Of a stretch of 64,000 bases of DNA, positions 51,829-55,318 are shown piece by piece. The notes beneath the pieces were generated by a model. That model was given only the letters and a program-made list of their open reading frames with translations. It was not told the origin of the DNA and searched no databases. The translations under genes were made by a program, and so were the position numbers. The DNA is from Candidatus Woesearchaeota archaeon (GTDB lineage: Archaea; Nanobdellota; Nanobdellia; Woesearchaeales; GW2011-AR4), in NCBI GenBank assembly GCA_016180235.1, contig JACPBQ010000004.1:175674-239673 (forward strand), written 5' to 3'. How positions within the stretch are numbered: position 1 is the first letter of the stretch; each line of letters starts with the position of its first letter.

Positions 51829-52778
51829 ATGAAAAGATATGTCAAAGGAGCCGGAATGACGAAATTCGGGGTGCTGGATAAGAACAGCCAGGAATTGTGC
51901 TACGAAGCTATAACGGAAGCATTGGAAGATGCGAACATGTCCCTTAGAGAAATAGATGAGATAGTCATTTCCAAAGGAGAATCTATTTATGACGGAGAAA
52001 GGCAAAGGCTTTTTCCCGGCGTGCTGAGCAGCATACTGCAGGACGAAAATATTCCAATGATAAGGGTCACGGCTGCCTGCAGCGGCGGAGGGGGAGCATT
52101 CTGGAATGCTGTGCATTCTGAAGCCAACAATGTTCTTGTTGTAGGCGTAGAGAAGCTTACTTCTGCCCTAACCAAGTACGTGACTGATGATTTCATGATG
52201 GCTTCTGAAAGAGTATACGAGCAGGCTGAAGGGCTAAATTTTCCGGCGCAGAATGCGCTTGTTGCGCAGCAATATATGTTGAGGTATGGTGCAGATTCCA
52301 GTGACCTTGGGCTGGTTGCGCTAAAGAACCATGATAATGCCTTCAATAATCCAAAGGCAAGGTTCTTCGGGAAGCGCAATAATAAGCAATGACAAAAGCA
52401 GCATTGAAATTGCTGCTTCATCCCTGTATGCGAGCAGGCTCCCGACTTTTGAGAGCGATGACATGACCAGCTGGGAAGCTACAGTTTTTGCCTCACAGGC
52501 TGCATATAAGGAAGCAAAGATGAATCCAGAAGACATAAACTTTGCCGAGCTGCATGACGCTTTTACGCCTGTTGAGCTTATGAGCTATGAAGACCTTGGA
52601 TTCTGCAAAAAAGGAAAGGGAAAGGATATGATAAGGAAAGGCATTACCAATATCAACGGAAAGCTGCCGGTAAATGCTTCCGGAGGCCTGAAAGCATAAT
52701 AAGATAGGGCTGGCACATAACGTAGGAGGTGCTGGAAGCACAGTTACAGTGCATATTCTAAAGAATATCGGAGGCTGA
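51829..52778 (+). pseudogene. Thiolase-like (SCP-x / archaeal acetoacetyl-CoA thiolase type) gene, disrupted
   Basis: Reads in three frames: 51829-52392 (stop after FFGKRNNKQ), 52331-52699 (..VNASGGLKA stop), 52701-52778 ([21 protein letters not shown]). Relative to its paralogue it lacks ~75 nt (IENSPIIASPLRLFDCSISVNGAAA) and the GHPxGATG..QLRGEAGKRQV segment. Confidence 0.65.
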
Positions 52779-52779
52779 A

Positions 52780-54252
52780 ATGATCATTAGATGGATCTGC
52801 GAGAAAGACAGGAAGAAATGGATATATCCTGTTGAAAAGTGCATATACTGCAAGGGCCCTGTCAAAAAGATTATCAGCAGGGAAGCAAAAATAATTGGCA
52901 TGACAAAAGTAAATGTTCCTTCTCCATTGCATCCTATTGTGCCGTATAATGTCGTGCTTCTCCAGGATGAGCATGGGAACAGGATGCCAAAAAAAACCAT
53001 GAAAGATTATAAGATAGGCGATACTTACAGCATTAAAAAGCCCAAAAGCAAAAATGCAGTCATAGTAACAAAGATAAAATACGATCTCAGGGAAGCACTT
53101 AAAGAATCGCTCGAGCTTATTGGATATTCTGGCTTAAAGGAAGGGGACAAAGTCCTTATCAAGCCAAGCATCATAGAGCCTGCGTACCATTATCAGGCTG
53201 TAGATACCAGCCCAAAGCTCATGGATGCTTTGCTTGGTATTCTAAAGGAAAAAGGAATTACCGATGTTGTTGTTGCAGAACAGTCGTGGCCCGGGAATGG
53301 TACTATAGCATCTGCAGAAAAAGCAGGCATAACAGAAGCATGCAACAAATATGGATGTAAAATTCTTGACCTGAAGAACTCGGAATATACTGAAAAAGAA
53401 ACGGACGGGATGAAGTTCAATATTGGCAATGAAGTTTTTGAAAGGAAAGTGATAAATGTCCCGGTGCTAAAGACAAATTCCCAAATTCTGGTTTCCGGGG
53501 CCATGGAAAACATGATCAGGGTCACTGACAGCAAAACGCAGGAGATGATGTACTCTAATGATATAGAAAAGACCCTGCCAAAGCTGATTAAAGCCCTTCC
53601 GGAATTTTTAACAATAGGGGATGGCACAATAGGAATGCATGCGCAAGGGCCAACTTCGCTTGGAGACCCGGCTTTCCTAAATATGCTCCTCATAAGCAAT
53701 GATGCTGTGGCTTTGGATGCTGTATTTGCCGAGATTGGCATGCTGCCAAAGCCGGAATATGTAAAGGAAGCAGATTCTATAGGGGCAGGGGAAGGAATTG
53801 TAAAGAATATCGAGGTTGTTGGAGAAGACCTTGAGGCTGTGAAGCTCAACCTTAAGCCTGCTTCGAAAGAAGCTACCGGCCATCCGAGAATCAAGCTGAT
53901 AGACGGGAAGTCGAGCCCTGCGATTTTTAATGAGGCTTTGGGTGTCAGCTCAAAGCTTATAGGGCTTTCAGGCTACCAGATGCACCTGGCCATAGGCAAA
54001 TTCATAGAAAAAGGAATGACTGCTGAGAAGGAAAGGATTGTCGCTTACGGGAAGGATGCGATAGAAAAGATGAGGGAGCTTGGAGTCAAAACAGCTGCTG
54101 AAATTCCGGAAGACATGGAGAGCATGGAAAAAATTGTGCTGATAAAGAGCATACTTGAGGACCAGAAAAAAGAGACCATCAATGCTGCTGACAGGATAAA
54201 GTCAAAGATTGCAAGTTTTGGGATGAAATTGAAAAAAAACTTTTCAAAATGA
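52780..54252 (+). CDS. DUF35 (Zn-ribbon + OB fold) fused to a DUF362 domain
   Basis: N-terminus CEKDRKKWIYPVEKCIYCKG...PYNVVLLQDEHGNRM (DUF35). VLIKPSI...DTSPKLMDALLGILKEKG...INVPVLKTNSQILVSGAMEN (DUF362). Confidence 0.65.
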   Translation: MIIRWICEKDRKKWIYPVEKCIYCKGPVKKIISREAKIIGMTKVNVPSPLHPIVPYNVVLLQDEHGNRMPKKTMKDYKIGDTYSIKKPKSKNAVIVTKIKYDLREALKESLELIGYSGLKEGDKVLIKPSIIEPAYHYQAVDTSPKLMDALLGILKEKGITDVVVAEQSWPGNGTIASAEKAGITEACNKYGCKILDLKNSEYTEKETDGMKFNIGNEVFERKVINVPVLKTNSQILVSGAMENMIRVTDSKTQEMMYSNDIEKTLPKLIKALPEFLTIGDGTIGMHAQGPTSLGDPAFLNMLLISNDAVALDAVFAEIGMLPKPEYVKEADSIGAGEGIVKNIEVVGEDLEAVKLNLKPASKEATGHPRIKLIDGKSSPAIFNEALGVSSKLIGLSGYQMHLAIGKFIEKGMTAEKERIVAYGKDAIEKMRELGVKTAAEIPEDMESMEKIVLIKSILEDQKKETINAADRIKSKIASFGMKLKKNFSK

Positions 54253-55318
54253 AAACTTACATCAAGGGAGCAGGAATGACAAAATTCGATGTAGAAAGGA
54301 GAGGCTCTTTTGAAAGGATTTTGGAATGCACCAATGAGGCGCTTGAAAGCGCAGACATGAATTTTGATGATATAGATGTCATATTTTCCTCGAGCTCGGA
54401 AGGCGGAAGAAACGAGGAAAGGCAGAAGCACCAGGGGCCGATGCTGAGCAGCCTATTCAGGAAAAACATACCGATACTCAATGTCAGGGCCGGCTGCGCG
54501 GGCGGCGGAGTGGCATTCTGGAATGCGATAAACCATCTTCATTCCTCTGATGCAAAAAACATACTTATAGCGGGCTATGACAATGTCGTCTCTTCAAACA
54601 ATGATATACTGACAGATGAGATACTGATGGGCGGCGAGCGCCTTTATGAGCAGACAGAAGGCCTGATATTTCCGGCGCAGAATGCGCTTGTTGCGCAGCA
54701 ATACATGTTGAGGTATGGTGCAGATTCCAGTGACCTTGGGCTGGTTGCGCTAAAGAACCATGATAATGCCTTCAATAATCCAAAGGCAAGGTTCTTCGGG
54801 AAGATTGAGAATTCTCCGATCATAGCATCCCCTTTGAGGCTTTTTGACTGCAGCATCTCTGTAAACGGCGCTGCTGCCGCAATAATAAGCAAGAATAAAA
54901 GCGACATTGAGGTGGCAGGCTATGGCATGGTAACAACTAATCTGTCTGCCATCGAAAGAGAGGACATGACTTCAATGGAAGCTACTATCAAGGCTTCAGA
55001 TATAGCTTACAGCATGGCAGGAATAAATCCATCTAATGTCGATATAGCAGAGCTGCATGACGCTTTTACGCCATTGGAGCTTGTTTCTTATGAAGACCTG
55101 GGATTCTGCAAAAAAGGAAAGGGAAAGGATATGATAAGGAAAGGCATTACCAATATCAACGGAAAGCTGCCGGTAAATGCTTCCGGAGGCCTGAAAGCAA
55201 GCAGATGAGGAAGGAAGCTGGAAAAAGGCAGGTTGATAATACAGATGTTGCTCTTGCACAGAATATCGGCGGCGTAGGCACCATGGCTGCAGTGCATATA
55301 CTAAAGAAAGCAAAGTAA
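54249..55318 (+). pseudogene. Thiolase-like paralogue with a frame-breaking internal deletion near the C-terminus
   Basis: The main frame stops at 55208 right after VNASGGLKASR. The expected continuation [38 protein letters not shown] is in another frame (55202-55318). The GHPxGATG segment between them is absent. Confidence 0.6.

Follow-up and report, generated by a model that had tools for sequence, protein, structure and literature searches.

Frame breaks in two thiolase paralogues of a Woesearchaeota genome are very probably scaffolding artefacts at inter-copy repeats

Introduction

The closest described counterparts of the genes considered here are thiolases with a DUF35 partner, namely the Methanothermococcus thiolase/HMG-CoA synthase/DUF35 system (PDB 6esq and 6et9), BbsAB (7pxp) and PhlABC (5m3k), which serve as our comparison systems. 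We study a stretch of 64,000 nucleotides (nt) from Candidatus Woesearchaeota archaeon, positions 175674-239673 of contig JACPBQ010000004.1 (C9 below) in its own genome assembly GCA_016180235.1 (G000), which we call the window, and within it a pair of thiolase paralogues at 51829-55318 whose reading frames are broken in the deposited sequence. The locus resembles the comparison systems in that the thiolase adjoins a gene containing a Zn ribbon, and in that copy 2, read in the contig-supported form described below, has a Cys in AGCAGGG, a GHP histidine loop and the C-terminal motif NIGG. It differs from them in that two thiolase paralogues flank the partner gene, and in that this partner shows no Pfam DUF35 match at its N-terminus and is fused to DUF362.

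A different kind of precedent comes from work on metagenome assembly. Local assembly errors at scaffolding points, notably in IDBA-UD output, have been described as a source of wrong database proteins (Chen et al., 2020, Genome Res, PMC7111523). These errors and the thiolase locus have in common a join whose consensus lacks support from data, a position at repeats or scaffold joins, and incomplete or incorrect proteins in public databases; what sets the thiolase case apart is that it can be recognised from sequence alone, as a lesion placed directly after an exact repeat of final-k length (99 or 141).

A preliminary description of the locus had reported two paralogues, two near-identical tracts between them and a loss of frame where the tracts end, all of which are present in the deposited sequence. 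It had treated the genes as broken by deletions that end conversion tracts, and had offered concerted decay, an assembly chimera across a repeat, or recoding as explanations. Here we argue, with high confidence, that the four apparent deletions are assembly joins made at inter-copy repeats and not the product of gene decay.

Results

Both paralogues lose sequence directly after exact 99-nt repeats

As deposited, paralogue 1 (51829..52778, + strand) runs through three frames by way of joins at 52374/52375 and 52696/52697. Paralogue 2 (54249..55318, + strand) has a join at 54803/54804, where 18 nt are lost in frame, and another at 55199/55200, where the loss of 52 nt shifts the frame and removes the GHP motif; all four joins are, in our reading, very probably artificial. 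The ORF (open reading frame) listing, direct reading and repeat finding place one paralogue on each side of the DUF362 gene, with ~68% identity between them overall, and these two are the only thiolase copies in the genome (1.04 Mb, 9 contigs, ~81% complete). The first of their near-identical tracts (52240-52374 = 54669-54803) is laid out as 35 nt, one mismatch and 99 nt of exact identity, and the second (52586-52696 = 55089-55199) also closes on 99 exact nt. On the + strand the exact runs that close tract 1 lie at 52276..52374 and 54705..54803, and those that close tract 2 at 52598..52696 and 55101..55199. We read these runs as the contig-end k-mer of the assembly. At all four junctions the exact identity between the paralogues directly before the join is 99 nt. 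This pattern is far from chance, and its non-random part is the length of the run, 99 nt each time.

The consequences for the proteins are the same in the two genes. The frame fails in both directly after ...GGCCTGAAAGCA, and the deposited copies match Pfam Thiolase_C_1 at positions 3-91 and then, in a different frame, at 109-144. Positions 92-108, which include the catalytic GHP histidine loop, are absent from the deposited ORFs, in agreement with the preliminary description, which had found the GHP-motif segment missing after tract 2 and the C-terminus in another frame. The nucleophilic-Cys motifs in the N-terminal domain can be read in both copies (TAACSGGG in copy 1, RAGCAGGG in copy 2). 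The same description had put a further shortfall of ~75 nt in copy 1. Set against copy 2, copy 1 does have 74 nt fewer directly after tract 1, and comparison with an intact orthologue (L033) refines this to 92 nt short at each of its two joins. For copy 2, contigs from the same population give the 52-nt shortfall at 55199/55200 and also the in-frame 18-nt one at 54803/54804, which had been missed.

Contigs from the same population read through three of the four junctions

As an independent view of the same population we used Logan contigs, which are k=31 assemblies of single Sequence Read Archive (SRA) runs, retrieved by exact-protein look-up of intact genes that neighbour the thiolases. With the enoyl-CoA hydratase (ECH) gene as anchor, contig L032 (SRR12113422) spans both joins of copy 2, and L029-L031 (SRR12113420, SRR12113430, SRR12113383) cover the C-terminus of copy 2 from the end of the repeat on. 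L032 is 100% identical to the window over 54802-55200 and 55198-56289, and it carries 18 nt (encoding KITLEQ) after 54803 and 52 nt after 55199, both absent from the window, so that it holds an open C-terminal frame of 197 amino acids (aa), FGKKITLEQIENSPIIASPLRLFDCS...; at the window's junctions copy 2 reads intact in the Logan contigs as ...FGKKITLEQIENSP.... For copy 1, the DUF362 anchor yields L028 (SRR12113430, with the same contig in 6 samples), which begins 50 nt upstream of the second join, is identical to the window from 52689 to 54698, and has in frame the conserved C-terminus that the window lacks.

The ends of these contigs are informative in themselves. The 30-mer on which L028-L031 all start, ATATATGAATTAGTCAAGCAGATGAGGAAG, marks where the repeat shared by the paralogues truly ends, as expected of a k=31 graph, and not the junction seen in the window. 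None of L028-L032 branches at the window's junction positions, and over the ~4.6 kb of overlap, drawn from four SRA runs, there are 0 substitutions between the window and the contigs. Intact Logan sequence from these four runs thus contradicts three of the four junctions, 52374/52375 being the one not covered. A pseudogene should show its disruption again in independent data from the same population; here L032 and L028-L031 show intact frames with flanks that are 100% identical.

With the Logan-supported sequence, copy 2 becomes a 379-aa thiolase that matches Thiolase_C_1 at positions 3-144 of 144 (163.9 bits), aligns through residues 2-377 with PDB 7yvy, and gives end-to-end alignments with all three of 7yvy, 4yzo and 6esq (E 1e-52 to 1e-59). 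Its C-terminal domain with GHP loop, its Cys and its length (~375-390 aa) are those of an SCP2/archaeal-type thiolase, whereas the deposited ORFs lack the GHP loop. The 90% cluster to which both deposited fragments of copy 1 belong contains, in addition, the intact proteins P0148 and P0149 (376/377 aa), from related populations whose gene order is the same. Judged by these contigs and orthologues, both genes in the real population read as intact SCP2/archaeal-type thiolases of ~377-379 aa.

The first join of copy 1 calls for separate treatment. Exact-protein look-ups of the upstream genes (the FabA-like gene in two start variants, a 197-aa membrane protein and PCNA) gave no match, so we have no same-population contig across this join. 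A scan of Joint Genome Institute (JGI) metagenome contigs with a copy-1-specific 36-mer likewise gave no match, and a homologue search with the middle fragment of copy 1 returned ORFs of 134-135 aa, all of them from other assemblies, and no same-population fragments. This join, at 52374/52375, is probably an artefact too, to judge from the k-mer signature, from the second lesion of copy 1, which likewise measures 92 nt, and from intact orthologues with at least 90% aa identity.

A repeat length of 99 nt recurs across the assembly

The number 99 is not confined to the thiolases. In the 1.04-Mb assembly the longest exact repeats measure 100, 99 (six times), 95 and 94 nt, with none above 100, and among the 25 repeats that reach 40 nt or more genome-wide, 6 have a length of exactly 99 nt. 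As background, older MEGAHIT defaults finish at k = 99, a value that is also k-1 for the IDBA-UD default maximum k of 100, and MEGAHIT's current default list finishes at 141. In two cases a pair of contig ends has exactly 99 nt in common (C2:1-99 = C9:436740-436838, and C6:132442-132540 = C8:9176-9274), an overlap typical of de Bruijn contigs. The only gap in the assembly tells the same story: a 99-nt run at C9:154926-155024 (partner C9:155995-156093), within a pair of paralogous genes that lies ~20.6 kb upstream of where the window starts, is followed by 13 N from 155025 to C9:155037. Since the sole gap of undetermined bases stands directly after a 99-nt run, such runs mark scaffold joints.

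The effect on genes is also repeated elsewhere. A pair of genes for TrmB-like helix-turn-helix regulators (...LSRGVSTAGELSDIANVPRSRSYD), sharing C9:283479-283578 and 318339-318438, lose their frame in both members directly after the 99/100-nt run, a further instance of the artefact seen in the thiolases. The marks of a de Bruijn misjoin are present: a repeat of length k at the junction, recurrence across the genome, and, for the three junctions covered, a junction sequence absent from independent assemblies.

Some further observations concern the contigs themselves. C9 and C2 could probably be joined, and one repeat lies at the ends of both C6 and C8. On C1, a 99-nt exact repeat (80013-80111 and 86268-86366) has a further 54-nt exact stretch just upstream and lies in apparently intergenic DNA with many short hairpins (GCAAAGAAATCC..GGATTTCTTGC); it is probably a longer repeated element shortened by the same assembly effect.

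A putative route from repeat to lesion

The repeats are truly longer than k, the contigs ended k nt into them, and the scaffold then went on with sequence missing or, at one other place in the assembly, with a stretch of Ns. In the sequence of events that we propose, the paralogues share exact repeats that extend beyond the assembler's final k (in tract 1 ~120 nt counted from the mismatch on, in tract 2 probably ~164 nt), and a de Bruijn assembler stopped its contigs 99 nt into each repeat. The scaffolder would then butt-join the contig end to the next contig, imprecisely trimmed and with no Ns inserted, so that each 99-nt run, in either copy, would be followed at once by a loss of 18-92 nt.

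The exact software step we can only infer. Insert sizes may have suggested a zero or negative gap, upon which the next contig would be trimmed by that estimate with the real overlap unchecked. Such trimming by estimate would account for the variable losses (18, 52, 92 and 92 nt), for the missing microhomology and for the side on which the lesions lie, which is where the scaffold leaves the repeat. As background, the IDBA scaffolder would trim the next contig by the overlap estimated from insert sizes when the estimated distance is at or below zero. Two other routes were considered and rejected. A scaffolder that cuts exactly k bases predicts losses of 21 and 65 nt in copy 2, against the 18 and 52 nt seen, and for k-mer shortcuts or microhomology-mediated artefacts the microhomology at the junctions is only ≤2-5 nt.

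The same kind of lesion in related genomes

Breaks of this type are found in several other metagenome-assembled genomes (MAGs). In the same-genus genome G001 (L023) the exact run is 99/100 nt and the lesions are 129 nt and 123 nt, and in G010 (L027) a 99-nt run goes with a lesion of 23 nt in copy 1 only. A run of 141 nt is found in G022 (L025, lesions of 49 nt and 45 nt) and in G020 (L026, 63 nt and 94 nt). In family pairs that are intact, the longest exact runs are 46, 51, 53, 95, 146, 239 or 695 nt, or there is none of at least 30 nt.

One further genome connects the lesion to a published pipeline. In GCA_016187495.1 (JACPJP01; L047, JACPJP010000012.1:32861-43268) both thiolases are split right after a 141-nt run. 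The supplement to He et al. 2021 lists this assembly under PRJNA640378; the study used MEGAHIT 1.2.9 with defaults and then the scaffolding function of IDBA-UD (PMC7906910). A related MAG with an identical lesion type therefore comes from a pipeline of MEGAHIT plus the IDBA-UD scaffolder, a link to IDBA-UD scaffolding that the thiolase lesions share with the errors of Chen et al. (2020, PMC7111523). A search of papers and of the He et al. 2021 supplements did not turn up the SRR run accessions themselves. In public data, C-terminal thiolase fragments of 134-135 aa beginning 'MTSW...' are numerous, come from several sources and are annotated as 'thiolase family protein' or 'hypothetical protein'.

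Alternative explanations

Four points weigh against assembly joins as the origin of the lesions. The case is built at the level of contigs; the same-population contigs reach three of the four joins, the first join of copy 1 at 52374/52375 being the exception; the trimmed amounts of 18, 52, 92 and 92 nt fit no simple rule of cutting k bases; and a minority or sample-specific deletion allele, with real lesions linked to conversion, keeps a very low probability. The main rival takes the lesions as real and concerted pseudogenisation, in which genuine deletions arose during or after conversion between the paralogues (for instance when break repair copies the paralogue and end-joining follows), the Logan contigs then stemming from co-occurring intact strains. 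The junction k-mers do exist in the deposited assembly, their microhomology is slight or nil, an outcome that end-joining can produce, the lineage has a reduced DPANN genome (1.04 Mb) of a kind in which pathway loss is common, and the same-genus G001 is without the ECH gene and has shortened thiolases. Even so, this account would need four independent deletions within 3.5 kb alongside zero substitutions over ~4.6 kb in contigs from at least four runs, with Logan unitigs that do not branch at the junction positions. It leaves unexplained why the junctions fall 99 nt into an exact repeat, why 99 nt is also the cap and mode of repeat length, the overlap of contig ends and the run before the gap, and why the figure is 141 nt in other MAGs; the lesions in G001, moreover, bear the same 99/100-nt signature. 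We regard real pseudogenisation as very unlikely, and with intact sequence in contigs of the same population the earlier picture of genes broken by deletions that end conversion tracts finds no support as biology. The preliminary description had named intact, in-frame genes as what would speak against it, and such genes are found here at contig level, in support of the assembly artefact across a repeat that it had also listed.

Less probable still is an assembly that is chimeric or collapsed in the sense that the tracts are themselves artificial and the paralogues not truly identical there. Similar paralogues can lose their differences in de Bruijn assembly and in read correction, and the identity does stop at k-sized boundaries. 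Against this, L028 stops with the opening 30-mer of tract 1, L032 sets in with the closing 30-mer of tract 1 in its true extent, and L028-L031 set in with the closing 30-mer of tract 2, likewise in its true extent; since k=31 contigs begin and end at the tract borders, the tract sequences must occur in two contexts in the reads. L032 also reads through tract 2 with the sequence found in both MAG copies, and intact relatives show conversion tracts of various lengths. To the remaining idea, that the genes are expressed by programmed frameshifting, by bypassing or as separate fragments, with a truncated form that is conserved and functional, we assign next to no probability. The many 'MTSW...' ORFs from several public sources, and the several related MAGs broken in the same gene regions, are what it would draw on. 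What is missing, however, is the GHP histidine loop together with a core beta-strand (PLRLFDCS..GAAA), and a frameshift cannot supply sequence that is absent; this catalytic segment is lacking from the deposited contig and is present in other assemblies, including contigs of the same population. Break positions vary from genome to genome, following the k-sized run of each assembly with no conserved site, and the named homologues, all from Woesearchaeota/Nanoarchaeota MAGs, are mostly intact at 376-380 aa. The suggestion of recoding or a split gene is accordingly abandoned, and assembly joins at inter-copy repeats are by a wide measure the most probable origin of the lesions.

Gene conversion between the paralogues

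With the deletions assigned to assembly, the tracts themselves still deserve attention. In intact relatives the identity of the two paralogues within a genome reaches 100% in tracts of variable length in the central and C-terminal parts, against an orthologue identity of ~0.66-0.71 in the same columns and a paralogue identity of ~0.55-0.6 elsewhere, in the flanks. Paralogues in the tracts, synonymous sites included, are therefore more alike than orthologues, as expected of gene conversion, and the unitig ends of the Logan contigs show that the tract borders are those of true repeats. Because the tract sequences differ from genome to genome, conversion is recurrent. Two genomes carry especially long stretches of exact paralogue identity in genes that are otherwise intact, 695 nt in G003 (L042, G003:C27:3400-9600) and 239 nt in G016 (L040, G016:C17:1-5000), which reflect either very recent large conversion tracts or homogenisation by the assembler.

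Gene conversion between the thiolase paralogues thus does appear to be real and to recur across the family. Of the concerted decay by gene conversion proposed earlier, this is the part that survives; the decay does not, and it would leave the regularity of 99 and 141 nt unexplained. In reaching 100% identity within a genome the tracts behave like other cases of concerted evolution of tandem paralogues, which is ordinary for closely spaced paralogues. Nothing about them is unusual by comparison, the supposed link between the end of a conversion tract and a deletion being an artefact.

The middle gene and its neighbours

Between the thiolases lies an intact gene of 490 aa (52780..54252, + strand) in which a Zn-ribbon-like N-terminus is fused to DUF362; its position, like the fusion, is conserved across the family, and an identical protein is encoded on Logan contig L028. 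The DUF35 label given to it earlier is not borne out, as residues 1-125 (window 52780-53154) match no Pfam family at E<=1, DUF35 and DUF35_N included. The CxxC-type motif in this N-terminus was seen by eye only. Relatives have CEKC...CxYCKG where this protein has CEKD...CIYCKG, and the first Zn-ligand pair in G000 looks degenerate from this comparison.

Upstream of the cassette is an intact FabA/FabZ-like dehydratase gene (51327..51827, + strand), and downstream, on the opposite strand, is the intact ECH gene (55319..56077, - strand) that served as an anchor for retrieving independent contigs. The family-wide order is FabA-like dehydratase, thiolase 1, Zn-ribbon/DUF362 gene and thiolase 2, often followed by ECH on the opposite strand. 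In G001 there is no ECH gene between thiolase 2 and a lipoamide-dehydrogenase-like gene; ECH is found in G000 and G021.

Discussion

The thiolase lesions are not a real feature of this genome. Their value is as a recognisable error signature, and their biological interest is low. The same error splits other paralogue pairs in G000, as well as the corresponding thiolases of several Woesearchaeota MAGs in public databases, and it lends itself to a cheap screen that needs only sequence. The marks to look for are an exact intragenomic repeat of exactly 99 or 141 nt, a lesion that follows it at once, and the absence of any longer repeat from the assembly.

For the biology of the family, we lean towards a picture of genuine tracts and artefactual deletions, with conversion that is recurrent and independent of lineage across a whole Woesearchaeota family and that could reflect selection for matching the two subunits of a heteromeric thiolase/scaffold complex. 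As it stands, the locus gives no evidence of pathway decay, of recoding or of deletion linked to conversion, and what it holds is two normal thiolases. The truncated 'thiolase family protein' entries now in databases would bias metabolic reconstruction of lipid and acetyl-CoA metabolism in DPANN archaea.

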